DNA from: Escherichia phage kaaroe
Length of the DNA stretch: 64,000 nucleotides
Reading direction: 5' to 3' (one strand)
Sequence record: MN850574.1
Positions 7,241 to 61,000 of this stretch are shown here, in pieces. Both the position numbers and the translations under genes were made by a program. Within the stretch, counting starts at the first letter, position 1. Each line of letters begins with the position of its first letter. The notes below the pieces were generated by a model. It had not been told where the DNA came from, did no database searches, and saw only the letters and a program-made list of their open reading frames with translations.

Positions 7241-7244
7241 CACT

Positions 7245-7271
7245 TGACATACAAGGGAGATTCTCTATAAT
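7245..7271 (+). promoter_or_regulatory. sigma70-type early promoter
   Basis: TTGACA-15-TATAAT; inverted repeat GGGAGA/TCTCCC flanks the -10. Confidence 0.45.
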
Positions 7272-7305
7272 GGGAGTCTCCCTTTTCTTTTATGAGGATT
7301 TAACG

Positions 7306-7671: not shown

Positions 7672-7866
7672 ATGAAACCGTTTAAGAATGAAGAAACTCA
7701 AAAATTTTGTGAAAAAATTGCAGAAATCTACTTGACAGGGAATAAGGAAAAAGCTAATATTATGTTCAAAGAGTCAGTTTCCATGATGAAAGTAGCACGC
7801 TGGGAACTGATCGCAATGCAAGACCAAATTCGTTATCTAGTAACAAAGGAGAATCAAAATGCGTAA
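7672..7866 (+). CDS. hypothetical protein
   Basis: ATG 7672 downstream of promoter. Confidence 0.5.
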   Translation: MKPFKNEETQKFCEKIAEIYLTGNKEKANIMFKESVSMMKVARWELIAMQDQIRYLVTKENQNA

Positions 7867-8336: not shown

Positions 8337-10445
8337 ATGAAAATGCATATTGATAATGAAGAAGTATTTGGCAGTGACTTGAGCGGTGCGGTTGATTTTT
8401 CACTGAAAGCAAGTAGCAAGGCTTTTATGGTGCTTTCTAAGAACACTTATCAATATTGTGAACGTGCTTGCGTCCGTGAGTATTCGTGCAATGCTACCGA
8501 CACTCACAAAGAAGCCGGAACCTTAGATCGTCCGTTTGATATTCATTTACCGACTGCAATCGAACCGTATTTTTCTGTGCGTGATTATGGTACTGGTATT
8601 CCGTCTAAGAAAGAATTAGAACAACTGTTTACGGTTTACTTTGAATCAACAAAAGACCAGACTAATGATTATATCGGATCTTTTGGTTTAGGTGCGAAAT
8701 CTGCTTATAGCTATACCGACACCTTTACAATCGTAAACTATTACAATGGTCGCGCTTATGGCTTTACGGCATTTGTGCAAAACTCTATGCCGAAAATGGT
8801 GCAGATTTTCGACGAACCGACCTATGAAGACAACGGTCTGAAAATCACTATTCCGGTGAAAGAAAAAGACATTCAGACATGGCATCGAGAAGCGCAATTT
8901 GTACTGCGTCATTTTGGGGAACACAAACCTAATATCAATGCAATCGAAATTAATTATTTCCCTAGCTTTGATAATTATTATGTGTGTAATGGGCGTGATA
9001 ACGATTCCTATGTAGTATATGCAATCATGGGTAAGATCCAGTATCCGATCCCGTATGAATATGTTCGCGGAACATGGTTAGAAGCTGTAAACCGCCAGCA
9101 CCAGACCATTTACATTAATTTTGAGTTGGGTGATCTGGACCTTATGCCATCGCGTGAAGAAGTTCACTTGTCAATTGAGACTAAAGCGAACATCGAAAAA
9201 CGCATTGCAGAAATCAATGAAATGATGTTGGAAAAGGTTAAAGAAAAGATCGCCAACATTAAAACAGAGCGTAAACTTGCGCAATTTATGAGCGAGTATT
9301 CATCGACTCAACGCAATATTATTAGCAAGATGGGTAAGATCGGACAATGGGACGATCCGGTAGCAATCTATAATAAGTTTGTTAATGCGGGTAAAGATTC
9401 GCCTAATGACGTAGAAGGTCAGGTGTATACTCTGTATCGTACTCGTCACACAATAAGTAAATTGCGCCCTGCTTTCGTTAGCAGTCAATACAACATTACG
9501 CATTTTGTATGGATGCATAAAGAAGATATTACGTGTCTTATTGATGATACCGATAAACCGAAACTGCGTGCACTGACTCTTAACGGCATGGTCCAGGAAT
9601 ACGGCATCAATAAAAAGGTACTGGTGTTCCGTCAGAAAAACGAAAAACATATGGAGACTTTCGAGTACATCAAACAGTATTATGATGATTCTGAAATGAC
9701 CGTGATTAAAGTGTCTGAGGCCGATGATCTGCGTGCTAAAGCAGTTAAACCGGAGAAGACCGAGCGTACACAACGTGAAGCGACTCCTAAGCTGCCTAAC
9801 GTGTATATCATGGAAAAGATTGGTGACAGTTGGCATAAAACCAGCCATCACATGAAAGCGGCAGAGATTCGCGAGTTATCAGGCTTGCACATGTTCCGCG
9901 TAGGTGATGCATTCGAAAGCCGTAGTCGTAAATCGATCCATAGTGAAAATACATTACACACGGCGCTTGACTACTTCGGGGTAACAAAGTATATTATTAC
10001 TCGAAACGAGACACAAAAATATCTCGTTGACGAACAATTGGAATGTGCGCTAGAATTTGTTCGCGGTAAGCTGGCTGGTCTGGCTAAGAAGGTTAAGACC
10101 AATCATCTGGGGTATGGCGAATATCTGGGTGTGATCACTATGTTGTTTCATGACGATGAACTAGAACGCTGTGTTCCAGAATTTATTGACAGACTGTACG
10201 GTCGTCATTATAATAAAGAGGTTTCCAAGTTACTCCTTCGTACTCGTTGGATTATGGACGCAGAAACTAAAAAGATTTGTGATGAAAAATTCACGGTAGC
10301 AAACGAACGAATTAAAGCAGTTTGTGCGAAGTTTAAAGAGAATAGCCCGTTACTGTATGATATTGTAGATAACTGGTATCGTATTCTGCATAATGACAAA
10401 CGCGCACAAGACTTTATGAAACTGGTTAAGAATGTTAAATTTTAA
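8337..10445 (+). CDS. rIIA: rIIA membrane-associated protein (GHKL ATPase-like)
   Basis: 702 aa (T4 rIIA ~725); N-terminal HATPase-like motifs (DYGTGIP, GSFGLGAKSAY); followed by rIIB. Confidence 0.85.
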   Translation: MKMHIDNEEVFGSDLSGAVDFSLKASSKAFMVLSKNTYQYCERACVREYSCNATDTHKEAGTLDRPFDIHLPTAIEPYFSVRDYGTGIPSKKELEQLFTVYFESTKDQTNDYIGSFGLGAKSAYSYTDTFTIVNYYNGRAYGFTAFVQNSMPKMVQIFDEPTYEDNGLKITIPVKEKDIQTWHREAQFVLRHFGEHKPNINAIEINYFPSFDNYYVCNGRDNDSYVVYAIMGKIQYPIPYEYVRGTWLEAVNRQHQTIYINFELGDLDLMPSREEVHLSIETKANIEKRIAEINEMMLEKVKEKIANIKTERKLAQFMSEYSSTQRNIISKMGKIGQWDDPVAIYNKFVNAGKDSPNDVEGQVYTLYRTRHTISKLRPAFVSSQYNITHFVWMHKEDITCLIDDTDKPKLRALTLNGMVQEYGINKKVLVFRQKNEKHMETFEYIKQYYDDSEMTVIKVSEADDLRAKAVKPEKTERTQREATPKLPNVYIMEKIGDSWHKTSHHMKAAEIRELSGLHMFRVGDAFESRSRKSIHSENTLHTALDYFGVTKYIITRNETQKYLVDEQLECALEFVRGKLAGLAKKVKTNHLGYGEYLGVITMLFHDDELERCVPEFIDRLYGRHYNKEVSKLLLRTRWIMDAETKKICDEKFTVANERIKAVCAKFKENSPLLYDIVDNWYRILHNDKRAQDFMKLVKNVKF

Positions 10446-49037: not shown

Positions 49038-50520
49038 TATCATTAATCAGCTTGCAGCAACAGACAAAACATCGCTGAAAGAAAAGATTCTGAAAGAATC
49101 CGCGAGCAATGAAACGCTGAAAGAATGCTTTTATCTGGCATATTGCAAACAGGTTACGTTTGGCGTAAAGAAATACGATAAACCGTCTCGCTATTCGTCT
49201 GTATTGTCTTTATCCGGTGCATTACAGGTCTTTAAAAATAAACTTGCCACGCGTCAAGTAACTGGTAATGCAGCATTACAGCTAGTTACCGATACTCTGA
49301 CTTGCTTGTCAGAAAATGATGCTAAAGTTGCAATGATGGTCCTGAATCGTGATCTGGAATGTGGTTGTTCCGCTACTACTGCAAACAAGGTATGGAAGAA
49401 ACTGATCCCTCAGCAACCGTGCCACCTTGCATCGTCATGTTCTGATAAGACTATTGCTAATATCAAGTATCCGGCGTATGCACAACTTAAAAGCGATGGC
49501 GCTCGTGGTATGGCTGATATTGACGGGGAAACATTAGCAATCTATACCCGCTCAGGTAATACCTATCAAGGGCTTGATGATTTGTTTGCGGTTTTAGAGC
49601 GTCTACGAGGCCGTGGAATTGTTCTAGATGGCGAATTGGTATATATGCCTACCCTTTCGCAAACACCAGCGCAGAACTTCGTTGAAAGCGTTTATGATGG
49701 TACTCTGTCATGGATATTTGAAGAAGAGGAAATGCCATTAACGCCAGTAGCGGAAGCAGTGAAAGAATCCGTTGTTGCAGATCGTCAGACCGGAAATGGT
49801 ATCCTCAACAAATCACTTAAAGGAACTATTCCAAAAGAAGAAGCCCAATGTATTGTTTACACTGTCTGGGATGTTATCGACCGTGATGTGTATTACGGAA
49901 ACGAGAAAGCAACGAAGCAATATAAAGATCGATTCGAAGAACTAAAACAGATTGTTGAAGAACTTAACGATCCTCGTGTTCAGATCATCGAAAACACTGT
50001 AGTTAACAATATCGATGAAGCTCGCGAAGTATATCATCGTTATGTCAACATGGGCTTAGAAGGTATTATCCTTAAAAATTTACATGGTGTATTTGAAGAT
50101 CGCCGTAGTAAAGATCAGGTTAAATTTAAAGAAGTGATTGACTTCGACGCGGAAATTGTTGATGTATATCCGCATAGTAAAGACCCCAATAAGGTAGGCG
50201 GTTTTACTGTCCGTAGTGCGTGCGGACGAATGATGACTAACACCGGATCGGGATTAACCGACACTACAACCGAAAAAGGTGATGATGGTATCGAACGTGT
50301 AATTCCGTTCGATCGTCGAAATGAACTCGACCGAGAAATGTTATGGGCTGACCGTCATAACCTGATTGGAAAAGTCATTGAGATGACATGCAACGGGTAT
50401 ATCCGCAGCAAATCACGTAAAGAAGATGAACCGGAGTTCTCTTTATTTCTCCCAATCATCAAACGTATTCGCTACGACAAGACCACTGCAAATACAGTAA
50501 AAGAGGTATTCGATGTGTGA
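49024..50520 (+). CDS. 30: ATP-dependent DNA ligase gp30
   Basis: AQLKSDGARG, LDGELVY, ANKVWKKLIPQQP, GLEGIILKN, GSGLTD match T4 DNA ligase. Confidence 0.93.
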   Translation: MSILNIINQLAATDKTSLKEKILKESASNETLKECFYLAYCKQVTFGVKKYDKPSRYSSVLSLSGALQVFKNKLATRQVTGNAALQLVTDTLTCLSENDAKVAMMVLNRDLECGCSATTANKVWKKLIPQQPCHLASSCSDKTIANIKYPAYAQLKSDGARGMADIDGETLAIYTRSGNTYQGLDDLFAVLERLRGRGIVLDGELVYMPTLSQTPAQNFVESVYDGTLSWIFEEEEMPLTPVAEAVKESVVADRQTGNGILNKSLKGTIPKEEAQCIVYTVWDVIDRDVYYGNEKATKQYKDRFEELKQIVEELNDPRVQIIENTVVNNIDEAREVYHRYVNMGLEGIILKNLHGVFEDRRSKDQVKFKEVIDFDAEIVDVYPHSKDPNKVGGFTVRSACGRMMTNTGSGLTDTTTEKGDDGIERVIPFDRRNELDREMLWADRHNLIGKVIEMTCNGYIRSKSRKEDEPEFSLFLPIIKRIRYDKTTANTVKEVFDV

Positions 50521-50989
50521 TAATGAAGGGGCGAAAGCCCCTAAACCTAAAAAATTGTCAAAGAAAGAGCAACGCCAGATCCTGAAAATGAAATATGGTG
50601 GACGTTGTGCCTATTGTGGCGAGGAACTAGGGGATCGCTGGCACGCGGACCACATCAAACCAGTATTGCGACGCTCAAAGGTAGTCTATGATGAAAATGG
50701 ACGAATTGCCCGTAATGATGATGGATCATGGAAATATAAGGTTGTAGGAATGCATAAACCGGAGCATGATATACTTGATAACATGAATCCGGCGTGTGTG
50801 CAATGCAATCTTTATAAAAGCTGTATGGGCTTAGAATACTGGCGTAAGTGTATACGCGAGAACTTCCAGAAGTACATTCAGCGCAATATGGGATTGCGAG
50901 CGGCTAAACGCTTTGGCTTGCTGTCAATCCACGACCAGCCAGTAGAATTTTATTTCGAAAAGTACGATCGCGAGCATCAAGAAAAATAA
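50513..50989 (+). CDS. HNH endonuclease
   Basis: CAYCGEEL...HADHIKPV...N...CVQCNLYK zinc-finger HNH motif; start overlaps ligase stop. Confidence 0.75.
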   Translation: MCDNEGAKAPKPKKLSKKEQRQILKMKYGGRCAYCGEELGDRWHADHIKPVLRRSKVVYDENGRIARNDDGSWKYKVVGMHKPEHDILDNMNPACVQCNLYKSCMGLEYWRKCIRENFQKYIQRNMGLRAAKRFGLLSIHDQPVEFYFEKYDREHQEK

Positions 50990-51002
50990 TTCAAAAAGTT
51001 GT

Positions 51003-51031
51003 TGACAGGGGATCGGTGATCCCCTATACTA
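51003..51031 (+). promoter_or_regulatory. early promoter cassette with palindromic spacer
   Basis: TTGACA-GGGGATCGGTGATCCCC-TATACT, conserved leader, ATG 51076. Confidence 0.65.
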
Positions 51032-51075
51032 CACACATCAAAACGAAACACACTTTCTTAAACGGAGAATCAAAA

Positions 51076-51387
51076 ATGAAATACATCGTAACGCTGCCAA
51101 TGATTGACTTCGACGGAACCATGAACACCCAGAAGACCATGAGCGCGGAGAACCAACTGAAAAACGCTACCCTGATTCGTGAAGTTCGCAAGGCACTGGC
51201 AAAAGAATTTAACACCAAAATTCATTCTGTAACTGGCGAACGTTTCGCGGATCATCTTGATATCAACATCAAACCAGTGCGCAACGGTGTTATCTCTGTA
51301 ACAACCAGCCGCCCACATGCTGACGCTGATAATCTGACCGCTCGCGCAGAAGATGTAATTATGACCGTTATCATGGAAAAACTTTAA
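51076..51387 (+). CDS. hypothetical protein
   Basis: GGAGAATCAAAA-ATG cassette. Confidence 0.55.
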   Translation: MKYIVTLPMIDFDGTMNTQKTMSAENQLKNATLIREVRKALAKEFNTKIHSVTGERFADHLDINIKPVRNGVISVTTSRPHADADNLTARAEDVIMTVIMEKL

Positions 51388-51395
51388 AAAAGTTG

Positions 51396-51424
51396 TTGAC
51401 AGGGGATCACCGATCCCCTATACT
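51396..51424 (+). promoter_or_regulatory. early promoter cassette with palindromic spacer
   Basis: TTGACA-GGGGATCACCGATCCCC-TATACT, ATG 51459. Confidence 0.65.
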
Positions 51425-51458
51425 ACACACATACCGAAACGAACTAGGAGAATCAATT

Positions 51459-51638
51459 ATGAACTTCAACGAAATCATCGCTAAAATCCGCTACAACGAA
51501 GAAACCATTGAACTGATGCAAAACAATATCACCAATGGCTATATGATTGCAGCGTCACAAGAAATCATTGATTTGACGGTAGCAGAAAATGCTCAGTTGA
51601 AACATCAACTTTCAACGGCTGGCGTGATTGTTATGTAA
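51459..51638 (+). CDS. hypothetical small protein (59 aa)
   Basis: Conserved leader/RBS then ATG 51459. Confidence 0.5.
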   Translation: MNFNEIIAKIRYNEETIELMQNNITNGYMIAASQEIIDLTVAENAQLKHQLSTAGVIVM

Positions 51639-51655
51639 TAAAGAGAGGTGACTAA

Positions 51656-51958
51656 ATGGCAAAAGTTCAGGTAGGTGAGGTCTTCAAAATGGAAGACCAC
51701 ACCGTGGAAGAGATGAAAGGCGCAGTATTGAAAGTAATTAATTCAATGTGGCGTAGTGTGCTTTACATCAACTTTATCGACGGTGATGTGTGGTGGGCTA
51801 GCGATAGCGATAAATGGGATATCAAGTTCTACAAAGGTCATACTCACTGGTTAGGATCAGAGGATGTTGTAGAAGTTCTTGCGGTTGATGTTATGCCAGG
51901 AGAGATCGAGAATCTTAGCGGAACAGCAAAAGAAGCATTGACACGCCATTTTGCGTAA
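51656..51958 (+). CDS. hypothetical protein, member of HxHW...AVDV paralog family
   Basis: GHTHWLGSEDVVEVLAVDV motif shared with four other ORFs (53007, 53709, 54034, 54731). Confidence 0.55.
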   Translation: MAKVQVGEVFKMEDHTVEEMKGAVLKVINSMWRSVLYINFIDGDVWWASDSDKWDIKFYKGHTHWLGSEDVVEVLAVDVMPGEIENLSGTAKEALTRHFA

Positions 51959-52014
51959 TGTAGTATAACAATAATCGGGAGGGTAATACTCTCCCACAAA
52001 TTGAGGATAATATT

Positions 52015-52206
52015 ATGTGTGGTCTTAAAATGGTTGCTGAATATAAGCGAACTGGTAATGTTATGATGTATCGACGCAATACCAACGAAGAATGGAAACC
52101 TTCAAACCGCATTAAATCCATCCAGACGTTTATGAATAACATAAAAGAAAACCTTTTCGTTAAGCGTGCTGGTGTTGGACATTGGGAAGTTTACGAAGCT
52201 GTATAA
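52015..52206 (+). CDS. hypothetical protein
   Basis: TTGAGGATAATATT-ATG cassette; upstream dyad GGGAGGGTAATACTCTCCC. Confidence 0.5.
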   Translation: MCGLKMVAEYKRTGNVMMYRRNTNEEWKPSNRIKSIQTFMNNIKENLFVKRAGVGHWEVYEAV

Positions 52207-52222
52207 TTTTGAGGAAAATACT

Positions 52223-52516
52223 ATGGAACATACTAATTTGTTTGTAGCCGAACCTTTCGTTGAAGGCAATAAAAATCTGGCTAATACCGTTATTCTTTAT
52301 GAAGATTGGATCTTTTACATCGACGAGCATTTAGATGTATTTTGTCGCACAGATAAAAGTGACCAATTTCCAATTGAAAAAAATCGAACATCAAATCATT
52401 GGTACGGCGGGAATGACGAAACCGACCTAGCTATTGTTCTAGAATCAGGCGTAGAATCTGAACATGCCAATGAAGTGGCAGACAAATTTATGAAATACGC
52501 ATATAAAGCATTATAA
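52223..52516 (+). CDS. hypothetical protein
   Basis: SD GAGGAAAATACT then ATG 52223. Confidence 0.5.
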   Translation: MEHTNLFVAEPFVEGNKNLANTVILYEDWIFYIDEHLDVFCRTDKSDQFPIEKNRTSNHWYGGNDETDLAIVLESGVESEHANEVADKFMKYAYKAL

Positions 52517-52521
52517 AGTTG

Positions 52522-52550
52522 TTGACAGGGGATCGGTGATCCCCTATAAT
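52522..52550 (+). promoter_or_regulatory. early promoter cassette with palindromic spacer
   Basis: TTGACA-GGGGATCGGTGATCCCC-TATAAT, ATG 52583. Confidence 0.65.
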
Positions 52551-52582
52551 GCACACATACCAACGAGATAGGAGAATCAAAA

Positions 52583-52750
52583 ATGTTCCAGACTAAAGCA
52601 GAATGCGAAGCATACATTGTAGCAAACCACGGTGAAGACTACCTGAAATTCGATATCGTAGTAGCACAGAAGATCACCGGAATGGTTGCAAAATATCTGG
52701 GTGTTAAAGAAGGTTACTATCCGAGCAACGCACCGGAAATCAACAAATAA
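52583..52750 (+). CDS. hypothetical small protein (55 aa), near-identical paralog of 55863-56030
   Basis: MFQTKAECEAYIVANHGEDYLKFDIVVAQKITGMVAKYLGVKEGYYPSNAPEINK versus MFETKAACEAYIIETHGEDYLKFDIVVAQKIVGMVAKYLGVKEGYYPSNAPEINK. Confidence 0.55.
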   Translation: MFQTKAECEAYIVANHGEDYLKFDIVVAQKITGMVAKYLGVKEGYYPSNAPEINK

Positions 52751-52753
52751 TAG

Positions 52754-52782
52754 TTGACAATGATTAAAGGGAGTAGTAAGAT
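52754..52782 (+). promoter_or_regulatory. early promoter cassette
   Basis: TTGACA-17-TAAGAT with GGGAGTA/ TACTC remnant dyad, ATG 52815. Confidence 0.55.
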
Positions 52783-52814
52783 ACTCACATCAAGACAACA
52801 AACGGAGAATCAAA

Positions 52815-52994
52815 ATGAAAGCTATCGAAGTTCAGAAGTACATGGAACTCATCATTGAAGGTAAAGCACATACAGTATTGACTACCCACGTAGGATATGA
52901 TAAAAATGTGCATATGCTGGTAGACAATATCGGCTGGATGAAGTTTAACCCTAACGAGAACGTACAAGCTCAAGAAATGACCATCCCTTTCTAA
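52815..52994 (+). CDS. hypothetical small protein (59 aa)
   Basis: GGAGAATCAAA-ATG cassette. Confidence 0.5.
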   Translation: MKAIEVQKYMELIIEGKAHTVLTTHVGYDKNVHMLVDNIGWMKFNPNENVQAQEMTIPF

Positions 52995-53006
52995 GAGGAA
53001 TATATT

Positions 53007-53285
53007 ATGATGCGAATTACTGCAACGCTGGATAAGACACACAAAGAAAGATTTTTCGGTATGATCTTAAAAACGCCGATTTTCGATAATTACCTTTATG
53101 TTGACTATGAAGGTCACATTAGCTATAAATGTAAAAATGATATTCGTGATTCCTTTGGTGATAAATCACAAGCTGATATTCATGACCACTGGTGGAACCA
53201 TGACGAACCTTTACGAGTTATCGCAGTTGATGTAAAAACAACAAAAGAAGCTGATAAGGTAGTGAATGATTATGAGCAAATTTAA
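53007..53285 (+). CDS. hypothetical protein, HxHW...AVDV paralog family
   Basis: IHDHWWNHDEPLRVIAVDV motif. Confidence 0.55.
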   Translation: MMRITATLDKTHKERFFGMILKTPIFDNYLYVDYEGHISYKCKNDIRDSFGDKSQADIHDHWWNHDEPLRVIAVDVKTTKEADKVVNDYEQI

Positions 53286-53529
53286 AGAATACAAAGCATA
53301 TCAACAGATCCTGCGAGTATACGCACCAGAGTTCGCCGAAAAGATGATGGAAGATGCATCAAAATGCCCGTCCTTTTCTGGAAACAAAAACCATTATTCT
53401 ACTCGTATTGTATCATGGAAAGAAACATGTTACACTCAACAGTGGATAAACGTTTTCTCAAAAACAATTGGTTGGAATGGTGTTAATTATGGGTATTCAG
53501 AGTCAATTCAAAGATTATCGAGTGTATAA
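53266..53529 (+). CDS. hypothetical protein (paralog pair with 53489-53707)
   Basis: FKEYKAY...AEKMMEDASKCPSF...NK..IV.W shared with next ORF. Confidence 0.5.
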   Translation: MIMSKFKEYKAYQQILRVYAPEFAEKMMEDASKCPSFSGNKNHYSTRIVSWKETCYTQQWINVFSKTIGWNGVNYGYSESIQRLSSV

Positions 53530-53707
53530 AGAAATCTGTGCTGTATTTGATGAGAAAACAGCAGATAAAATGATGAAAGAAGCGTCACAATGTTCATCTT
53601 TTGTTGATAACAAAGATTTAAGAGTAAATGAGATCGTGTGCTGGAGCGACACGAAACATGAAATTGTATGGCGTACCGTGTACTATAGCCGCGACCGAGG
53701 ATTATAA
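53489..53707 (+). CDS. hypothetical protein (paralog pair with 53266-53529)
   Basis: FKDYRVY...ADKMMKEASQCSSF; ATG 53489 inferred from paralog alignment. Confidence 0.45.
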   Translation: MGIQSQFKDYRVYKEICAVFDEKTADKMMKEASQCSSFVDNKDLRVNEIVCWSDTKHEIVWRTVYYSRDRGL

Positions 53708-53708
53708 A

Positions 53709-54029
53709 ATGAAATTAACTAAAAAGATTTTCCCAGAATTGCGTAACTGTCTGTTACTGGTTACTGAATATAAACCTTATACGATCTATTTGTACGTTGA
53801 TGAAAATCTGAAAATCCGTTACTATGATTATACGTCTCCAGTGATGAAATCATTTGCTCACTCGATCGCAAATAACTGTATGAATCACAATCATTGGGTA
53901 TCAGAAACGGATGACGATGCGTCAGAAGTTGTAGTGGTTGCATGGAATCTATCACCAGCGGAAGCAGATCAAGCACGCATTAAGCATTATGCGAAAAACA
54001 ATTGGTTTGACCTTATAAATGAGGACTAA
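53709..54029 (+). CDS. hypothetical protein, HxHW...AVDV paralog family
   Basis: MNHNHWVSETDDDASEVVVVAWNL motif variant. Confidence 0.5.
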   Translation: MKLTKKIFPELRNCLLLVTEYKPYTIYLYVDENLKIRYYDYTSPVMKSFAHSIANNCMNHNHWVSETDDDASEVVVVAWNLSPAEADQARIKHYAKNNWFDLINED

Positions 54030-54033
54030 TATT

Positions 54034-54312
54034 ATGTTCAAAGTAGGTGATAAGTTTATTCTTAGTCGTGATATTCTCCCTAATCTGAAAGGTTGTATCA
54101 TCAATCCTAGTAAAAATTCATGGTTTTATCTGTTTATCGATGATGATCTAAATGTACGCGCCGAATATAAAGAAGGTCTTCGTACTGGTCTTGGTTTCTT
54201 TCACGATCATGACCATAGCCATTGGCTAAACGGTGGATTCGAAGCAACGGTGATAGCGGTTGATGTGGATTACACAAACATCATAGAAAAATATCAAAAA
54301 ATTATTTTATAA
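54034..54312 (+). CDS. hypothetical protein, HxHW...AVDV paralog family
   Basis: HDHDHSHWLNGGFEATVIAVDV motif. Confidence 0.55.
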   Translation: MFKVGDKFILSRDILPNLKGCIINPSKNSWFYLFIDDDLNVRAEYKEGLRTGLGFFHDHDHSHWLNGGFEATVIAVDVDYTNIIEKYQKIIL

Positions 54313-54318
54313 AAAGTG

Positions 54319-54347
54319 TTGACATAAGATCGGGTGTATAGCATAAT
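54319..54347 (+). promoter_or_regulatory. early promoter cassette with dyad over -10
   Basis: TTGACA-17-CATAAT; perfect inverted repeat GGGTGTAT/ATACACCC brackets -10; ATG 54394. Confidence 0.6.
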
Positions 54348-54393
54348 ACACCCATCGAAACGAGATACACTTTCTAACTAGGAGAATCAAATT

Positions 54394-54681
54394 ATGGCAT
54401 ACATTACTATCACTCTGAAAGTTAACAAATTTGCTCACGCTGCACACGAAACCGATAATGCAATCCGTAACAACAAGTTCGCACGTCTGGTACGCGATGC
54501 AGTAGCTAAAGAGTTCAACTTCAAATTTGCAGATGGTAAAGTTATCACTAAATGGACTCATGACGGCGAAACTAAAGTAGAACTTGCTGACAACTTCGCA
54601 AATCAGGAATATGCACACCGTCGCATTAATGAAATCATCAGCGATGAACTCTACTACGGTGTACAGGAAGGACTGTTTTAA
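54394..54681 (+). CDS. hypothetical protein
   Basis: Conserved leader/RBS, followed by terminator. Confidence 0.55.
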   Translation: MAYITITLKVNKFAHAAHETDNAIRNNKFARLVRDAVAKEFNFKFADGKVITKWTHDGETKVELADNFANQEYAHRRINEIISDELYYGVQEGLF

Positions 54682-54684
54682 TAT

Positions 54685-54708
54685 ACGGGGCGTTAAGCCC
54701 CCTTTTCA
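54685..54708 (+). terminator. rho-independent terminator
   Basis: GGGGCGTTAAGCCCC hairpin followed by CTTTTCATC; same hairpin recurs at 58887. Confidence 0.65.
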
Positions 54709-54730
54709 TCCAACTATTGAGGATAATACT

Positions 54731-55039
54731 ATGAAAGATAATATCTTTGAATTTACCCGCGAAAATCTCCCAATGTTCCGAAAGTCTCTGCTTAAACTAG
54801 AGAACAGCAATTACGATGTATATTTTTACATCACCGAAGATCTAGAGATCCTTTACGCTGATTACCCAGGTCCGATCCGTACCTTCGAAGAAGCATCGCA
54901 GTATAAAAATGTTCACGGTCATGAGCACTGGTTACGAGAAAACCCAGGTCGCAAGAAAGCACGCGTTAAAGTGATTGCGATTGACGTAACACCAGCATAC
55001 GCCGACCGGATTGCACTGAATGATTATTTGTCTAAATGA
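54731..55039 (+). CDS. hypothetical protein, HxHW...AVDV paralog family
   Basis: HGHEHWLRENPGRKKARVKVIAIDV motif. Confidence 0.55.
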   Translation: MKDNIFEFTRENLPMFRKSLLKLENSNYDVYFYITEDLEILYADYPGPIRTFEEASQYKNVHGHEHWLRENPGRKKARVKVIAIDVTPAYADRIALNDYLSK

Positions 55040-55047
55040 TTTTATTA

Positions 55048-55075
55048 GCCGACCTTAGCGTCGGCTTTTTTATTG
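55048..55075 (+). terminator. rho-independent terminator
   Basis: AGCCGACC-TTAG-CGTCGGCT followed by TTTTTTATT. Confidence 0.75.
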
Positions 55076-55095
55076 CATAAAATTAAAAAAAAGAA

Positions 55096-55124
55096 TTGAC
55101 ACCAGATCACGCCTATAGCATAAT
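55096..55124 (+). promoter_or_regulatory. early promoter cassette
   Basis: TTGACA-17-CATAAT, leader ACACCCATCGAAACGAG.., ATG 55165. Confidence 0.6.
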
Positions 55125-55164
55125 ACACCCATCGAAACGAGATACCACTTAGGAGAATCAAACA

Positions 55165-55434
55165 ATGGCACTGACTAAAACCACTACCAACTTTGCAAAA
55201 CGTCACGGCTTCGACATTGAAATCAATAGCTTTAACGATTACACTCTTCTGTGTGTATATGAAATCGAAAATGATTGCGAGTGGATGTTCAGCTATCGCG
55301 TAAACGAAGACGGATCTTTCACTTGGAACGGAAATATCTATCTTGCACAGGAAGTAAAAGAAGAACTTCCGGCGAATATCAAAGATGAGAAACATTTACG
55401 TCAAGTTTTAAAATTTATTTCTGAAAATATCTAA
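55165..55434 (+). CDS. hypothetical protein
   Basis: AGGAGAATCAAACA-ATG cassette. Confidence 0.55.
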   Translation: MALTKTTTNFAKRHGFDIEINSFNDYTLLCVYEIENDCEWMFSYRVNEDGSFTWNGNIYLAQEVKEELPANIKDEKHLRQVLKFISENI

Positions 55435-55442
55435 AAAAGTTG

Positions 55443-55471
55443 TTGACACCAAAGTAAGAACATAGCATAAT
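55443..55471 (+). promoter_or_regulatory. early promoter cassette
   Basis: TTGACA-17-CATAAT, ATG 55505. Confidence 0.6.
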
Positions 55472-55504
55472 ACACCCATACCGAAACGAACTGGAGAATC
55501 AAAA

Positions 55505-55786
55505 ATGAAATTCATCAAAGCAACCGAAATCCTGAAAAACAAAGAAGCATACATCGGAAACATCGTTGGTATGAACATTCGCGGCGCTGGTAGCCAGTGG
55601 ACCAAACTGGTTGATGTTAAAGCTAAAGGCGATAAAATTGAGTTCACTGTAAAAATGCTTACTCATAACGCACATATGGGTATCAAGACAAAAACGATGG
55701 CAGCAGATAAAAGCATTAACTATCAGGGTCTGGGTGATTGGCTGAACTGGTGCAAAATGCACAATATCGAAACTAATCACGAATAA
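55505..55786 (+). CDS. hypothetical protein
   Basis: Conserved leader/RBS. Confidence 0.55.
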   Translation: MKFIKATEILKNKEAYIGNIVGMNIRGAGSQWTKLVDVKAKGDKIEFTVKMLTHNAHMGIKTKTMAADKSINYQGLGDWLNWCKMHNIETNHE

Positions 55787-55800
55787 TTTTAAAAAAGTTG

Positions 55801-55829
55801 TTGACGGGGATCGGGAGATCCCCTATAAT
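55801..55829 (+). promoter_or_regulatory. early promoter cassette with palindromic spacer
   Basis: TTGACG-GGGATCGGGAGATCCCC-TATAAT, ATG 55863. Confidence 0.65.
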
Positions 55830-55862
55830 ACACACATAACGAAACGAAATAGGAGAATCAAA

Positions 55863-56030
55863 ATGTTCGAGACTAAAGCAGCATGTGAAGCATATATCAT
55901 TGAAACCCACGGCGAAGATTATCTGAAATTTGACATTGTAGTAGCACAGAAGATTGTAGGGATGGTTGCAAAATATCTGGGTGTTAAAGAAGGTTACTAT
56001 CCGAGCAACGCACCAGAAATTAACAAATAA
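55863..56030 (+). CDS. hypothetical small protein (55 aa), near-identical paralog of 52583-52750
   Basis: See 52583 entry; about 90 percent identical at protein level by eye. Confidence 0.55.
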   Translation: MFETKAACEAYIIETHGEDYLKFDIVVAQKIVGMVAKYLGVKEGYYPSNAPEINK

Positions 56031-56044
56031 TTTTATAAAAAGTA

Positions 56045-56073
56045 TTGACAGGGGAGGATAACTCCCCTACAAT
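56045..56073 (+). promoter_or_regulatory. early promoter cassette with palindromic spacer (operon 56114-58346)
   Basis: TTGACA-GGGGAGGATAACTCCCC-TACAAT, ATG 56114; no further promoter until 58355. Confidence 0.65.
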
Positions 56074-56113
56074 ACAACCATCAAGACGAGATACCACTTA
56101 GGAGAATCAAACA

Positions 56114-56365
56114 ATGGCTAACATCGAAACCGCAAAGAAAATCGCTAAAGACCTGAACGTTAAAGGCTTCCGTAAACTGAAATTACAGCGTGTACGCTAC
56201 ACCATCGGCAAACAGTGCTCTTTCATGAGCGAAGAAGTTGCTAACAGCCTCATTGATAACCTGATTGCGGCTGGCTGGGAAGTTGCGGATCTGAAAACTT
56301 GCCGCGAACTGGCTAACAAAGGTCTTTTAGATTCTGTTACTATCAAACCAATGGGGGCAGCGTGA
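56114..56365 (+). CDS. hypothetical protein (operon gene 1)
   Basis: Conserved leader/RBS. Confidence 0.55.
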   Translation: MANIETAKKIAKDLNVKGFRKLKLQRVRYTIGKQCSFMSEEVANSLIDNLIAAGWEVADLKTCRELANKGLLDSVTIKPMGAA

Positions 56366-56607
56366 AAAGAAAATTAATTAAACGCAATAAGGAATTTCTT
56401 AATAACTGCATTAAGGCCGCTAATGGTTGGCCTTTGTGCCTCTTCCTTTATGATTGGTATTCTAAACAATCAGTTGAGGAAACACGACACTATAAGAAGA
56501 TCAGAAAAGAATCATATACAAAACAAGGCCGCATTAACGGACTTTACTTAATGTGGCACGGCAAAGAACCTTCTAAAATCTGCGTTGGATTAAAGGGGCG
56601 TATATGA
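56362..56607 (+). CDS. hypothetical protein (operon gene 2, GTG start)
   Basis: GTGA overlap with upstream stop; ORF track 56362-56607. Confidence 0.45.
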   Translation: MKRKLIKRNKEFLNNCIKAANGWPLCLFLYDWYSKQSVEETRHYKKIRKESYTKQGRINGLYLMWHGKEPSKICVGLKGRI

Positions 56608-57320
56608 AACAAAAATTAATATTCTGTAACTTTGACGGATCGGGGATAATGGGGCTAGAATGGGCTAAAGCAGGTCATAAGGTGATCTGCTTTAATGCTG
56701 ACGATGGCGACCACGGCACATACAAAAAGTATAATACCAGATTTGAACACCCAAACATTACCTATGTAAACACATGGATTGATTTGAACTGGCTAGAAAG
56801 AGCAATGGACCTTGAATGGGGGAAACCGGATATTATCTTTGCATTCCCACCGTGCACCAATTTAGCTGTTAGTGGCGCTGCACACTTTGAACGAAAGAAA
56901 CGAGAACAAGGACCATTGATTCAAGTTCATGATGTAAGGGCAGCTAAAATAACCGCTTATTTGGGTGAATGGCTAGGAGTTCCCTACATGATAGAGAATC
57001 CTGTAAGCGTTATCTCTAGCATGTGGCGTAAGCCTGATTACATGTTCCACCCGTGGGAATATGGCGGTTATTTGCCGGAAGATGATAAACATCCTACTTT
57101 TCCTGAGTATATCGCCGCCCGTGATATGTACCCGAAAAAGACTTGCTTATGGACCGGACAAGGCTTTATAATGCCAGAAAAGAAACCGTTGCAGATTAAT
57201 AAAGGGTACAGTAAACAGCATTCTAAGCTAGGCGGGAAAGGAACGAAAACAAAGACTATCAGGTCACTTACCCCGCGAGGATTCGCAAAGGCAGTATTTG
57301 AAGCAAATAAGGATCTATGA
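56604..57320 (+). CDS. C5-cytosine-methyltransferase-like catalytic core protein (operon gene 3)
   Basis: Motif-I-like FDGSGIMG, motif-IV-like FPPCTNLAVSG, motif-VI-like IENPVS; 238 aa, no obvious target-recognition domain. Confidence 0.45.
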   Translation: MKQKLIFCNFDGSGIMGLEWAKAGHKVICFNADDGDHGTYKKYNTRFEHPNITYVNTWIDLNWLERAMDLEWGKPDIIFAFPPCTNLAVSGAAHFERKKREQGPLIQVHDVRAAKITAYLGEWLGVPYMIENPVSVISSMWRKPDYMFHPWEYGGYLPEDDKHPTFPEYIAARDMYPKKTCLWTGQGFIMPEKKPLQINKGYSKQHSKLGGKGTKTKTIRSLTPRGFAKAVFEANKDL

Positions 57321-57655
57321 TGAGATTGTTTAAGTATTCGCTAACGTCAAATTACGATAAACAAGGTCATTGCATCCGTTGCCCTGATTGTCATAGCCAT
57401 AACATCGAAAGCAAGATCACCGATCATATTGATGGACTTTGGTCGCCAGCAAGTGAAATAGAATACTATTGCGCTGATTGTGGAATTGTAGTAGCATATT
57501 GGGCATACGGATCATATGATCCATACTTCCAGATGGGAGAACGTTCAATCCCTGCGCTTATCTGGAGAATTAAGAACAATATCCGCTATTCATGGGATGA
57601 GTTCTTAAAAGATATTGATTTACGTGATGATCCATTCAGGAGAACTATATTATGA
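57317..57655 (+). CDS. zinc-ribbon protein (operon gene 4)
   Basis: CIRCPDCHSH ... CADCG; ATGA overlap with upstream stop. Confidence 0.5.
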   Translation: MMRLFKYSLTSNYDKQGHCIRCPDCHSHNIESKITDHIDGLWSPASEIEYYCADCGIVVAYWAYGSYDPYFQMGERSIPALIWRIKNNIRYSWDEFLKDIDLRDDPFRRTIL

Positions 57656-57831
57656 TAACACCACAACTACACGGTAAAGAGATTTGCGATCTTACTTGGG
57701 AAGAGTTGGTCATGTATCGCGACACCTACAAATGGTTTGAATCCATGAAAGAATTTGTAGCAGCAGTACGAGAAGAAATGAGCATTCGCCAGTATGCGGA
57801 CGCATATATTGAAAAGGTAAGCACACTATGA
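57652..57831 (+). CDS. hypothetical small protein (59 aa, operon gene 5)
   Basis: ATGA overlaps at both ends; manually translated. Confidence 0.4.
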   Translation: MITPQLHGKEICDLTWEELVMYRDTYKWFESMKEFVAAVREEMSIRQYADAYIEKVSTL

Positions 57832-58346
57832 ACCGTTTAACGCCTAAACGCCGTTACTATACCAATACTAAAAACTTTGTCATCTCTGTTTATGAGGCGT
57901 GGTTAGAAGATGGCTTTATCAACATGAACCCAGATTATCAGCGTCCTTTGGTATGGGACACCGAAAACAAACGTATGTTTATCGAAAACCTGATTAATGA
58001 TTTTCCGGTTGGTGCTATCGCAATGGCTAAGATTGATGATGGCTCTCGCTATGAGATCGAAATCGTGGACGGTAAACAGCGTTTAAACGCAATATTCTCC
58101 TTCATGAAGGATGAGTTTAGCATTGCTGGTAATGATGATTCTATGTTGTATTACAGTGATTTTACGCCAGCAGAAAAGCGACGTTTCCGAAATCTCGGAC
58201 TACCCGCGATCATGATGGAAGAGAGCACACGAGAAGACCGATTAGAGTATTTCTACAAAACAAACTTTTTCGGTGTGCCTCAATCGGAAGAACATCGCCA
58301 GCATGTGATTGCCCTATTGCAAGATGAGCAATTAAAAAATAACTAA
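57828..58346 (+). CDS. DUF262/ParB-like nuclease-domain protein (operon gene 6)
   Basis: NPDYQRPLVW and IVDGKQRLNAIF (DGQQR-type) motifs typical of DUF262, the GmrSD N-terminal domain. Confidence 0.6.
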   Translation: MNRLTPKRRYYTNTKNFVISVYEAWLEDGFINMNPDYQRPLVWDTENKRMFIENLINDFPVGAIAMAKIDDGSRYEIEIVDGKQRLNAIFSFMKDEFSIAGNDDSMLYYSDFTPAEKRRFRNLGLPAIMMEESTREDRLEYFYKTNFFGVPQSEEHRQHVIALLQDEQLKNN

Positions 58347-58354
58347 AAAAGTTG

Positions 58355-58383
58355 TTGACAGGGGATCATCGATCCCCTATAAT
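58355..58383 (+). promoter_or_regulatory. early promoter cassette with palindromic spacer
   Basis: TTGACA-GGGGATCATCGATCCCC-TATAAT, ATG 58418. Confidence 0.65.
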
Positions 58384-58417
58384 ACACACATACCGAAACG
58401 AACTAGGAGAATCAAAC

Positions 58418-58597
58418 ATGAAACACTTAACCATCGAATCGGCAATCATCGCAATCGCTAAAGTTCAAGCGGCTTATAATTGCACTGACATTGAAGCCAT
58501 TTCAAAAATGCAAGCAGAAGCAGCAAAAGCGGGTGACGAGAAATCTTTAGATGTTCTCTGCGAAATCAAAGCAGAATTGATTTCAAAAATGTTCTAA
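58418..58597 (+). CDS. hypothetical small protein (59 aa)
   Basis: Conserved leader/RBS. Confidence 0.5.
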   Translation: MKHLTIESAIIAIAKVQAAYNCTDIEAISKMQAEAAKAGDEKSLDVLCEIKAELISKMF

Positions 58598-58603
58598 AAG
58601 TTG

Positions 58604-58632
58604 TTGACATAACAGAGGGTGTATATCACAAT
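58604..58632 (+). promoter_or_regulatory. early promoter cassette with dyad over -10
   Basis: TTGACA-17-CACAAT; inverted repeat GGGTGTAT/ATACACCC; ATG 58669. Confidence 0.6.
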
Positions 58633-58668
58633 ACACCCATACCGAAACGAACTACTAAGGAGTATCAA

Positions 58669-58881
58669 ATGGCTAACATCGAAATCATCATTACCGACGT
58701 AACTTATGACCGCATTAACGAAATCGGTACTGCATTACTGGAAGATGGAACAACTCGTACCATCAACTACGCAGAATACGTTGAAATGCGCGGTTGTATT
58801 AAACGAGTAGGAAAATATATCCTGATTGAAAAAGACTATTCAGGATACACCTTAGAGCAATTGCTCGATGGTGCATTATAA
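58669..58881 (+). CDS. hypothetical protein
   Basis: AAGGAGTATCAA-ATG cassette. Confidence 0.55.
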   Translation: MANIEIIITDVTYDRINEIGTALLEDGTTRTINYAEYVEMRGCIKRVGKYILIEKDYSGYTLEQLLDGAL

Positions 58882-58885
58882 TAAA

Positions 58886-58908
58886 TGGGGGCGTTAAGCC
58901 CCTTTTTC
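58886..58908 (+). terminator. rho-independent terminator
   Basis: GGGGCGTTAAGCCCC hairpin followed by TTTTTCAT. Confidence 0.7.
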
Positions 58909-58948
58909 ATAAATATAGGTTTATAGGTTATCAACTAGAGGATATAAA

Positions 58949-61000
58949 ATGTTTAACTTAGAAATCGACGATCTAATGATTGAATCTTTCGAGAAATGGC
59001 TGTTGACGGAAGAGGAAGAAAACTTTGGCAGTATTGCTCCGGTACAGTGCTTAAAGCCTAAGCAGAATCCTAAACAGCTTTTTGCAGTACAGACACGCGA
59101 TAAAGATGTGATTGTCCGTCTTTGTAACTTCACCAACAAAACACCTAAAATCATTCGTATGGGTGACAAGACCGCACATGTTGTACTGTGCGAAATGAAC
59201 AAAAGCGGTCGTATTGTACAGCTTAAAAATGGTCTAGGCGATAACCCGATTGCAGTTATGTCAAGTGCTTTTGATGTGGTTATGGAAACAGCCCGTAAAG
59301 CGCAATTAGACGCTGTTATGTTCCGTTTTAACGTATCCCGCATGAAAGGTAAGACCGAACTGGTTAAGCGCGTTATAGAGCGTTTGGTGCGTCGTACACC
59401 GAAGTTTGAAGTATTCCAGCAGGAAGTAATGACCAGCAAAAAGATCGCTTTAGTTGTTGTCAAGCGTCGCGGGATGGCGATTGATAAGATTAAAGGTATT
59501 AAACTTGATGAATCCTTGTTCACTAAAGTAGAAAGTGATTTAGGTGATCGCTGGGTATCTAAGGCTACTGGTGAATCTCTGACTAAAGATGAGGCATATG
59601 CGGCTAGTCTTGTGTCAGAAGAAGAACGAAACGCGGAAGCAGAACAACGCGTAGCGGCTAAATCTCGTTTGACTAAAGAAGAAATGCTGAAAACTCAAGC
59701 GACATATAACAGCGACTACGTGAATCATCCAGAAAAAATTAATCTTAAACCGGAAGAAGATATCACCGAAGCAGAACCTAAGAAACAGTTTAATACTCTG
59801 ATTGACCGTCAAGCCTTAGAACGTTCAACCGCCCGTTCTCTGAATGACTGGACAAGTGATATTATCACTCGCTATGGTTTCATGCGTACTATTTTTGAAA
59901 GCGAAGCCGATGCAAAATACGCAGTAAGCGAACTGGTAAAAGTTCAGGATCAATATGATCCATTGTCTGCGGAAGTTATCGCAGCCTCGGTCAAACGCTT
60001 AAAAGAAATCATGAGCGAGGAAGTATTCGAAAACAAGATCACCGCCCTGGCAATGGATCGAGTAGACCAGTCTATGCCAGCAGATGTAAAAGCTGAAATG
60101 CTGCGTAGTCATATCACCCAGATTAAAACAGATGCCCTACGTAATATTGCCTCCGGTATGTTTGAAGCAATTGCTAGCAACATGGGTGAAATGATGGCAG
60201 ATATTGATCTTGATCTGCCGGGCGCGGAAGGTTTTGTGTTGAGCGAATATGCCGATGCAGCATACATCAATATGAACAACTTCCTAACCGACCGTAAGCT
60301 GGAAGAGTTTGAAGGCATCGCAGATCCAGAAGAATTGGTCAAGATGTGCGATGCACTGGATAATGCCTTCTCCAACTATGGCGTTAAACTTGATCCGGGT
60401 ACTATTCTGTATCGTGGTATGGACTTCCGGTCGCAAATGTGGGAAACTGCACGTAAGCAAAAAGCGTTTTACTTTAAAAACTATGTGAGCACTTCCCTTG
60501 CACCTAACATTTTTGGCGGCTGGAATGCAAACGTGGCTAGTGCCGTTGCTGGTGTTGATTCTATGGCTGGCTCTCGCGGTGAAGGTGGCGCTAATGTTGC
60601 TTTCTCCATTGCTGGCGCGGAAAACATCCCTGTATTGCCAGTAGGTAACAAAGCATTTGCTTACAAAGAATGCGAGATTTTACTTCCTCGCGGTGTTGTG
60701 TTATCCTTTGATACGGTAACTCGTGCTACGGCATCGACGGATTCACAAGAAACTTATTACATCGAGGCACATATTATGAACAAAAATGAACTGGCAGCAT
60801 TACAAGAATCTGGCGAGATGATCGCGGACGGTGATGCATTCATCCGTGAAGGTGTTGTTAAACCGGCTTCTGACCTGTCTTTCTCCAGCTTCATTAGCGA
60901 AGCTAAAACCGAACGTAAGAAAGCAGATAAGGCAACTCTACGTCAGCTTATCGCTGATCTGGTATCTGTAGACGCAATGCCAGATAAATTTAAAATGTAA
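58949..61000 (+). CDS. alt: ADP-ribosyltransferase Alt (virion-packaged)
   Basis: 683 aa (T4 Alt 682); SLFTKVESDLGD, LYRGMDFRS, FYFKNYVSTSLAPNIFGG, ECEILLPRG (R-S-ExE) match T4 Alt. Confidence 0.9.
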   Translation: MFNLEIDDLMIESFEKWLLTEEEENFGSIAPVQCLKPKQNPKQLFAVQTRDKDVIVRLCNFTNKTPKIIRMGDKTAHVVLCEMNKSGRIVQLKNGLGDNPIAVMSSAFDVVMETARKAQLDAVMFRFNVSRMKGKTELVKRVIERLVRRTPKFEVFQQEVMTSKKIALVVVKRRGMAIDKIKGIKLDESLFTKVESDLGDRWVSKATGESLTKDEAYAASLVSEEERNAEAEQRVAAKSRLTKEEMLKTQATYNSDYVNHPEKINLKPEEDITEAEPKKQFNTLIDRQALERSTARSLNDWTSDIITRYGFMRTIFESEADAKYAVSELVKVQDQYDPLSAEVIAASVKRLKEIMSEEVFENKITALAMDRVDQSMPADVKAEMLRSHITQIKTDALRNIASGMFEAIASNMGEMMADIDLDLPGAEGFVLSEYADAAYINMNNFLTDRKLEEFEGIADPEELVKMCDALDNAFSNYGVKLDPGTILYRGMDFRSQMWETARKQKAFYFKNYVSTSLAPNIFGGWNANVASAVAGVDSMAGSRGEGGANVAFSIAGAENIPVLPVGNKAFAYKECEILLPRGVVLSFDTVTRATASTDSQETYYIEAHIMNKNELAALQESGEMIADGDAFIREGVVKPASDLSFSSFISEAKTERKKADKATLRQLIADLVSVDAMPDKFKM

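Follow-up and report, generated by a model that had tools for sequence, protein, structure and literature searches.

The genome of Escherichia phage kaaroe, of which a stretch of 64,000 nucleotides (sequence record MN850574.1; the window) was analysed here, carries between positions 50990 and 58910 a recurrent cassette made up of a promoter, a leader and a ribosome site. We are highly confident that these cassettes are promoter-early stem-loops (PeSLs), the composite regulatory cassettes of RB49/phi1-type Krischvirus, and that they act in hyperplastic region 3 (HPR3) as insulated units that are exchanged by homologous recombination. The identification of PeSLs in this type locus is already known and not new, HPR3 being the locus where PeSLs were defined in RB49 and phi1 (Arbiol et al. 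2010; PMC2839356). The first-pass annotation, made from the letters alone, had likened the cassettes to the PeSLs of T4-type phages, and was right to do so given that the phage group, the locus and the orthology to tested RB49 cassettes all agree, although two or three of the copies are without a (full) stem-loop.

The phage belongs to Krischvirus, a group of RB49/phi1-like T4-type coliphages. The region matches 63 phage records, nearly all of them Krischvirus, with an identity of 93-98% to Krischvirus genomes (kvi, 97.5%; phi1, 93.6%) and a match in part to RB49, and its content is variable across these 63 relatives. A comparison of the annotated RB49, phi1 and GEC-3S regions showed it to be collinear with RB49 ORF210c to ORF185c. 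Judged from its sequence, the region is HPR3, located between the HNH/ligase genes and alt.

Cassette copies, stem-loops and orthologues

A scan of the window for the promoter core GTTGACA-N17-TATAAT, with two mismatches at most, gave 36 matches where 3.4 were expected, a number that was reached in 0 of 100 shuffles, and a looser scan returned 52 matches on the + strand and 7 on the - strand. Eleven full cassettes and one weak variant (at 51938) lie in the region, all of them on the + strand and intergenic, so that the 12 or more copies counted by the first-pass annotation become 11 to 12. The -35 hexamers of the 11 cassettes start at 51002, 51396, 52522, 52754, 54319, 55096, 55443, 55801, 56045, 58355 and 58604 (the cassettes are named below after these positions, as in c51002), and the ATGs behind them are at 51076, 51459, 52583, 52815, 54394, 55165, 55505, 55863, 56114, 58418 and 58669, respectively. 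The same 11 sites are annotated as promoters in the GenBank record of GEC-3S. The consensus that had been proposed for the cassette is matched almost letter for letter by c58355, and the further copies that had been listed outside the region all exist (1532, 14691, 15396, 15709, 16289, 40095, 42360, 42639, 42920, 43145 and 61018), the one at 61018 being a divergent cassette subtype.

With a length of 70-90 bp and a common orientation, the cassettes combine an upstream tract rich in A with hexamers resembling TTGACA-N17-TATAAT, a conserved leader and GGAGAATCAAA-ATG. The spacer measures 17 nt in all 11, their hexamers agree with the consensus in no fewer than 10 of 12 positions (two copies are perfect), and in all 11 the sequence GGAG(A/T)ATCAA stands 0-3 nt before the ATG (which is 1-4 nt after the first ten bases of the GGAGAATCAAA 11-mer). 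The stop codon of the upstream open reading frame (ORF) is found 6-14 nt before the -35 in 10 of 11 cases, while c55096 follows a terminator instead. Conservation is confined to the cassette: the alignment that had been suggested as a check found the copies far more conserved (0.61-0.97) than the ORFs flanking them, the mean pairwise identity reaching 0.97 in the -35 and 0.75 in the -10, 0.68 over the initial 20 nt of the leader and 0.61 over the 20 nt of the A-rich upstream tract (consensus AAAAAGTTG), compared with 0.27-0.29 for the flanking ORF sequence and a random background of 0.267. The cassettes are mosaics in which subtypes of upstream tract, spacer and leader are combined differently; for example, a run of 37 nt that covers the leader, the ribosome site and the first codons is common to c55096 and c56045, whose promoters differ. 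An 83-nt cassette query matched only Krischvirus, namely 58 of 50,697 phage records, with about 9 detectable copies per genome.

A stable G-rich/C-rich stem-loop is present in 8 of the 11 cassettes (-12.8 to -19.4 kcal/mol, z -1.9 to -5.8). In six of these a 17-nt palindrome such as GGGGATCGGTGATCCCC fills the spacer between -35 and -10, and in two the arms GGGTGTAT-N6-ATACACCC span the -10. Among the paralogues in the window and 17 relatives, three base pairs of the stem showed compensatory double changes with G-U intermediates, and it is pairing rather than sequence that is conserved in the cassette stems. Each stem ends at or before about +1 and is hence found only in transcripts that arrive from upstream, a position that agrees with the published role as an attenuator.

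Three cassettes, c51002, c52522 and c55801, agree at almost every base with PeSL211/210, PeSL206/205 and PeSL192/191 of RB49. In RB49, the stem-loop of PeSL211/210 lowered lacZ expression with an effect close to that of rrnB T1, PeSL206/205 was a strong promoter with ~13,000 Miller units, and the mini-circle experiments on ORF192 and ORF210 were run at HPR3 (PMC2839356). The presumed promoter activity of c52522 and terminator activity of the c51002 stem-loop are taken from these RB49/phi1 orthologues, for which they are published. Promoter and terminator activity as well as mini-circles come from the literature, and the anatomy, the cassette-confined conservation, the covariation, the orthology and the hybrid cassettes described below from the present analysis.

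The spacer palindrome GGGGATC-NNN-GATCCCC was also seen to vary in its 3-nt loop, which switches between GGT and its complement ACC, both between paralogues (51008-51024 versus 51402-51418) and within three orthologous groups (c51002, c52522 and c58355; relatives phiS, GEC-3S, RB49, W115 and ELT4). This switch could be caused by hairpin-loop inversion or by gene conversion between cassettes. In FL20, the orthologue of c54319 (7697-7737) joins the 5' arm GGGTGTAT to the 3' arm of the other allele, ATATCCCC, and the resulting mismatched stem of -7.5 kcal/mol is apparently a recombinant within the loop.

Recombination between cassettes and rival explanations

The synteny of the region was compared with 17 relatives by dynamic-programming chained alignments, in which a few middle segments of W115 and GoldenSnicker were not resolved; a greedy chain of high-scoring segment pairs was dropped because cross-matches among cassettes and paralogues confused the chaining. 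Four chimeric cassettes were found in the relatives, each with a crossover bracketed by parent-specific bases. JK32 carries a chimera of c51002 and c51396 with the loss of one ORF (crossover in the identity run of the -10 and discriminator), JK32, Cognac and phiS carry one of c58355 and c58604, again with one ORF lost (crossover in CATACCGAAACGAACTA), phiS one of c51002 and c52522 with five ORFs lost (crossover in GGAGAATCAAAAATG), and Cognac one of c52522 and c55801 with the loss of 3.3 kb and 11 ORFs (crossover in the ribosome site). The distinct junction end-points number about 28, of which 13 are within cassettes (9 of the 11 are involved), and cassettes make up about 15% of the region (binomial, 8e-5). 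In addition, the slot upstream of c55801 was found in three states across phages: it is empty in kaaroe and phi1, holds ORF192 in RB49 and a 57%-identical allele of it in FL38, and is occupied in JSE by an unrelated ORF that looks secreted. Cassette-mediated shuffling is supported by these alignments, and the earlier suggestion that the cassettes mark regions of gene shuffling stands as far as hybrid cassettes and alternative cargo are concerned, but does not extend to the roughly half of the breakpoints that are at non-cassette ORF borders.

The cargo ORFs of this slot (the ORF193/ORF191 slot; JSE 9930-10305, RB49 9348-9893, FL38 6986-7459) each stand behind a stem-loop and a ribosome site, with a promoter that is poor at best, and both RB49 ORF192 and JSE_199 have signal-peptide-like N-termini.

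Under the PeSL interpretation, a cassette would start at the stop codon that ends one ORF and reach to the ATG of the next. Its A-rich tract would act in an UP-like manner, and its near-consensus sigma-70 promoter would be read by the unmodified host RNA polymerase immediately after infection. In most copies, the G-rich/C-rich hairpin in the -35/-10 spacer or across the -10 would be followed by a short, unstructured, A/C-rich leader and then by a strong GGAG ribosome site; the hairpin would exist only in read-through transcripts from upstream, which would be attenuated or terminated there, and would be missing from the cassette's own transcript, so that the first ORF behind each cassette would be expressed as an insulated immediate-early unit. 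With equally oriented cassettes spaced 0.2-2 kb apart, phage homologous recombination could cross over between them, and a crossover would delete, duplicate or swap the intervening ORFs while always restoring a working promoter and ribosome site. We infer the immediate-early timing, the insulation of the units in vivo, the role of the leader and the recombination by the general machinery of the phage.

Several observations weigh against this interpretation or narrow it. No stem-loop was found by folding in c55096 (-0.8 kcal/mol, z=0.28) and c55443 (-2.0 kcal/mol, z=0.06), which appear to be promoter-only derivatives that retain the 3' arm ATACACCC, and the stem of c52754 is a weakened GGGAGTA-N6-TACTCCC of -5.2 kcal/mol compared with about -12.2 in relatives, owing to a point change at 52771-52787 (TACTCAC here, TACTCCC in more than 10 relatives). 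The PeSL hairpins are followed by UAUAAU or AUCGAAAC and have no U-run, and a + strand terminator scan reported none of them; on this sequence criterion they were rejected as canonical intrinsic terminators because the U-run is missing, although they may still attenuate, as published. About 15 junction end-points are at ordinary ORF borders (51656, 52017/52209, 53465/53709, 56378/56605 and 57643/57828), and with all gene borders as the reference (a cassette is present at 11 of about 26), the enrichment of breakpoints is modest; PeSLs are one main route of rearrangement and not the sole one. As the cassette family is restricted to Krischvirus, "mobile" can only mean exchange within that gene pool. 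Lastly, we found no Krischvirus transcriptome in the collection of papers that was searched.

A different role for the stem-loop, namely that of a DNA-level signal (a hairpin or cruciform, or a protein-binding palindrome) that directs site- or structure-specific recombination and on which shuffling depends, was raised in the Discussion of Arbiol et al. (PMC2839356), and we consider it improbable as the main function. GGGG...CCCC is indeed common to the stems, the GGT/ACC loop flips between paralogues and within three orthologous groups would be expected from hairpin-templated switching in DNA, and the HNH endonuclease gene at the edge of the region has endonuclease-VII-like PHROG matches. However, all four mapped crossovers are in the longest identity runs downstream of the stem-loop (-10/discriminator, leader and ribosome site), and the fact that they fall in identity runs rather than in stems speaks for plain homologous recombination rather than for a site-specific mechanism directed by the stem. 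The sequence of the stems varies by subclass while pairing is kept, which points to a structure rather than to a fixed sequence for protein recognition, and the stemless c55096 is still a recurrent breakpoint (55143). Two deletions at non-cassette borders use other short repeats of 16-17 nt, and the loop flips are equally explicable by gene conversion between paralogous cassettes that hold both orientations.

Two further explanations are very unlikely, and to the same degree. If the copies were independent sigma-70 promoters and ribosome sites that had come to resemble each other by convergence on the host consensus, rather than an exchanging family, one would expect their most conserved parts to be those of the host consensus, as is the case for the -35, the -10 and GGAG. 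Yet identity reaches into non-consensus positions, namely the upstream tract AAAAAGTTG, the discriminator ACACACAT and the leader CCGAAACGAAC (0.61-0.68), particular copies have long leader variants such as ACACTTTCT and GATACCACTTAGGAGAATCAAACAATGGC in common, the restriction of the 83-nt cassette to Krischvirus speaks for a family, and the hybrid cassettes in relatives, as cases of real exchange, contradict convergence. A transposon-like or homing-type mobile element moved by its own enzyme might be suggested by the high copy number, the nearby HNH gene and the published mini-circles; however, no terminal inverted repeats or target-site duplications were found around cassette-plus-ORF units, no transposase or integrase was found among the 25 ORFs (Pfam, PHROGs), and no cassette-plus-ORF unit was found at non-homologous sites with target duplications in the 17 relatives. 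The cassettes are moreover in one orientation and strictly intergenic, their junctions are accounted for by homology, and Arbiol et al. did not find a recombinase either (PMC2839356).

Codon usage, RegB-like sites and layout of the region

The ORFs that stand first behind a cassette differ in codon usage from other genes. Scored with an optimal-codon list of the Ikemura type for E. coli, their frequency of optimal codons (Fop) across the window is 0.64 compared with 0.49 for other genes (p = 9e-8), and the 7 highest genes of the 64 kb are all cassette-first. In the region, CTG accounts for 49% of the Leu codons of cassette-first ORFs versus 11% in other ORFs, and no ATA, AGA, AGG or CTA codons occur in the cassette-first ORFs; the downstream ORFs of the same units are AT-rich at third codon positions (G+C at third positions, 0.36 versus 0.42). 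The ribosome sites differ as well, with GGAG in 11 of 11 cassette sites as against 1 of 14 non-cassette sites, and the cassette leader is predicted by folding to be unstructured.

The T4 RegB/S1 target consensus in early mRNA is the 11-nt GGAGRAYARAA (Durand et al. 2006; PMC1702504). Of its 11 positions, 10 are matched by GGAGAATCAAA, the ribosome site of the cassettes, position 8 being C where the T4 consensus prefers A, and a relaxed RegB/S1 pattern gave 15 matches against 1.2 expected, 14 of which are on the + strand at ribosome sites. Such RegB/S1-like GGAGAATCAAA sites were noted at 51064, 52571, 52804, 54381, 55152, 55493, 55852, 56101 and 58406, and also at 7848, 14739, 42690 and 42977. 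A tblastn search with T4 RegB found no regB in the 64-kb window; the RegB homologue of Krischviruses (42% identity to the T4 protein) is encoded outside it, about 65-70 kb away in G2494. On this basis we tentatively put forward, as a possibility that we rate somewhat below an even chance, that the cassette may be a complete "pulse" module, in which a time-zero promoter is combined with host-tuned codons and with a ribosome site, GGAGAAUCAAA, that doubles as a RegB/S1 site. The endoribonuclease of the phage would then switch off the cassette-first ORFs and spare the downstream ORFs with their GAGGA-type sites. Neither the codon bias nor the RegB-site match is mentioned in the two PeSL papers (PMC2839356, PMC4122927), and the residual novelty of the present study is in these two observations, both of them inferred by us.

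Along the + strand, on which the cassettes, the terminators and the 25 ORFs described below all lie, c51002 (50987-51078) has its -35 at 51002-51007, the spacer palindrome GGGGATCGGTGATCCCC at 51008-51024, the -10 TATACT at 51025-51030, a long leader and GGAGAATCAAA, with a hairpin of about -12.8 kcal/mol. In c51396 (51385-51461), which has the same -10, the loop of the spacer palindrome GGGGATCACCGATCCCC is inverted relative to c51002. The possible twelfth, weak cassette (51938-52017) has TTGACA-N17-TAGTAT, a GAGGA-type ribosome site, an ATG at 52015 and a stem-loop, GGGAGGGTAATACTCTCCC (51977-51996), downstream of its -10, the segment folding at -18.8 kcal/mol; it has no promoter annotation in the GEC-3S record. 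A perfect TTGACA-N17-TATAAT with a spacer palindrome is found in c52522 (52514-52585), and c52754 (52748-52817), with the -10 TAAGAT and its weakened stem-loop across it, heads a unit of 6 ORFs. The two cassettes with GGGTGTAT-N6-ATACACCC are c54319 (54310-54396; -10 CATAAT within the stem-loop at 54332-54353, -13.8 kcal/mol, long leader) and c58604 (58595-58671; -10 CACAAT within the stem-loop at 58617-58638, -13.6 kcal/mol, and GGAGTATCAA). Promoter, leader and ribosome site are all present in c55096 (55076-55167), which has lost the 5' arm and comes after a canonical terminator, and in c55443 (55432-55507), which is without a stem-loop. The spacer palindrome is GGGGATCGGGAGATCCCC in c55801 (55784-55865), between TTGACG and TATAAT, and GGGGATCATCGATCCCC in the perfect consensus copy c58355 (58344-58420). 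In c56045 (56028-56116), the palindrome GGGGAGGATAACTCCCC gives the most stable hairpin (-19.4 kcal/mol, z=-5.8), followed by the -10 TACAAT; this cassette heads another 6-ORF unit, which includes a DNA methyltransferase and a GmrSD_N/DUF262 protein.

Apart from the PeSL hairpins, the terminator scan of the region found true terminators only at 54687, 55047 and 58887, all three annotated in GEC-3S. These canonical intrinsic terminators are GGGGCGTTAAGCCCC followed by a T-run (54687-54709, after the ORF at 54394-54681), AGCCGACCTTAGCGTCGGCT followed by TTTTTT (55047-55075, after the ORF at 54731-55039), and a hairpin with the same core as at 54687 (58887-58908), which closes the region before alt. 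The hairpin GGGGCGTTAAGCCCC is identical at 54687-54701 and 58888-58902 and is as such a further repeated regulatory module of the region.

The region holds 25 small ORFs (55-238 amino acids; 51076-58881), whose layout suggests about 11 transcription units. The first-pass annotation had each of about 25 ORFs driven by its own cassette; the count of 25 holds, but only 11 are directly behind a cassette, and the other 14 are downstream in multi-ORF units, where stop and start codons often overlap, and use a second recurrent ribosome site of GAGGA type, TGAGGAtAATAtTATG. According to Pfam and PHROGs, 23 of the 25 are of unknown function, those downstream of cassettes falling only in unknown-function PHROGs; the same databases identify the DNA methyltransferase (56604-57320) and the GmrSD_N-domain protein (57828-58346). 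Six non-cassette ORFs, each behind a TGAGGAtAATAtTATG site, form a paralogous family of 91-106 amino acids (51656-51958, 52223-52516, 53010-53285, 53709-54029, 54034-54312 and 54731-55039). Its members share an invariant H-W (HxHW), have a C-terminal strand resembling V(I/L)A(V/I)DV and fall in PHROGs without a known function. Paralogy was also seen between 52583 and 55863 (89% identity) and between 53272 and 53489 (39%). The products of 51076 and 54394 gave no BLASTP match to each other, yet both match phrog_7474 over their full length at ~1e-43, and we treat them as probable distant paralogues. An ORF of 59 amino acids (57652-57831), without a PHROG or Pfam match, lies between the homologues of ORF188 and ORF187 with ATGA-type overlaps; it is absent in at least 13 of 17 relatives and present in FL04, the alignments of W115, GoldenSnicker and MIZ4 not being resolved there, and its insertion is not bordered by cassettes.

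The flanks of the region are those that had been named in the first-pass annotation, with an HNH endonuclease gene (50513-50989; Pfam PF01844) on one side and, on the other, the gene of an ADP-ribosyltransferase (58949-61000) that is annotated Alt in relatives. About 33 nt upstream of the alt start, CATAAATA at 58908-58915 matches the T4 late-promoter motif TATAAATA in 7 of 8 positions, which is consistent with alt possibly being a late, virion-packaged protein outside the early units.

Across the whole window, some tetranucleotide palindromes depart from expectation (GGCC 0.24x, CTAG 0.42x, AGCT 0.53x, GATC 1.57x and CGCG 1.74x), a bias that looks like restriction-site avoidance; we take the phage to carry unmodified cytosine. 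Promoter control by Dam through GATC, which occupies the same place in the spacer of 8 of the 23 cassette promoters, was considered and rejected, as the cassettes have shared ancestry and the observations are not independent.

Significance and comparison with known systems

To have found a published element again, in the locus where it was first defined, is useful for annotation and nothing more. The comparison of 17 genomes, as against 2 in 2010, strengthens the published model by adding natural chimeras with mapped crossovers and a slot with three states, and it also reveals that about half of the rearrangement end-points make no use of a cassette. If the RegB-site and codon-bias observations hold true, PeSLs might represent a compact natural design for a strong and self-limiting burst of expression, which would serve small host-takeover or anti-defence proteins and could help in choosing which ORFans to study.

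No categorical difference was found from the PeSLs of RB49 and phi1 (Arbiol, Comeau, Kutateladze, Adamia and Krisch 2010, Genome Biol Evol 2:140; PMC2839356), which belong to the same genus and the same locus (HPR3, ORF210-ORF185) and are built alike: the stop codon of the preceding gene lies in an AT-rich tract, which is followed by TTGACA-N17-TATAAT, a Shine-Dalgarno sequence and an ATG, and a G-rich/C-rich stem-loop, as in 8 of the 11 kaaroe copies, usually occupies the spacer or spans the -10. Like phi1, kaaroe is without ORF192, and it has its own set of alleles, for example the weakened stem of 52754, the extra 59-amino-acid ORF at 57652-57831 and the lack of ORF211. The PeSLs of T4/PST and KVP40/nt-1 (Comeau, Arbiol and Krisch 2014; PMC4122927) are conceptually alike, being composite promoter-terminator motifs that border ORFans, and are likewise found in hyperplastic regions and implicated in insertions and deletions, but they differ in their promoters (TTTACW...TAYWAT and TTGYVH...TAWWAT) and in their stems (AGNA/TCNT and A3-4G3/C3T3-4), which are upstream of the promoter. 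By sequence comparison, they are best described as analogues of the kaaroe cassettes and not as their sequence homologues.

The RegB/S1 targets of T4 are resembled by the cassette ribosome site GGAGAAUCAAA, which agrees with their consensus in 10 of 11 positions and, as they do, lies in the Shine-Dalgarno region of early genes. The RegB of RB49 is divergent, with 42% identity to that of T4, and cleavage at the cassette sites is putative; activity of the RB49 enzyme has been reported (PMC3014915). A resemblance to integron gene cassettes, and to the "moron" and Botstein "linker" models of modular evolution in phages, lies in the exchange of small cargo genes at repeated boundaries that supply expression. 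Unlike integrons, however, the kaaroe cassettes have neither an integrase nor attC, each brings its own promoter, and their exchange appears to proceed through general homologous recombination on identity runs of 15-50 nt.

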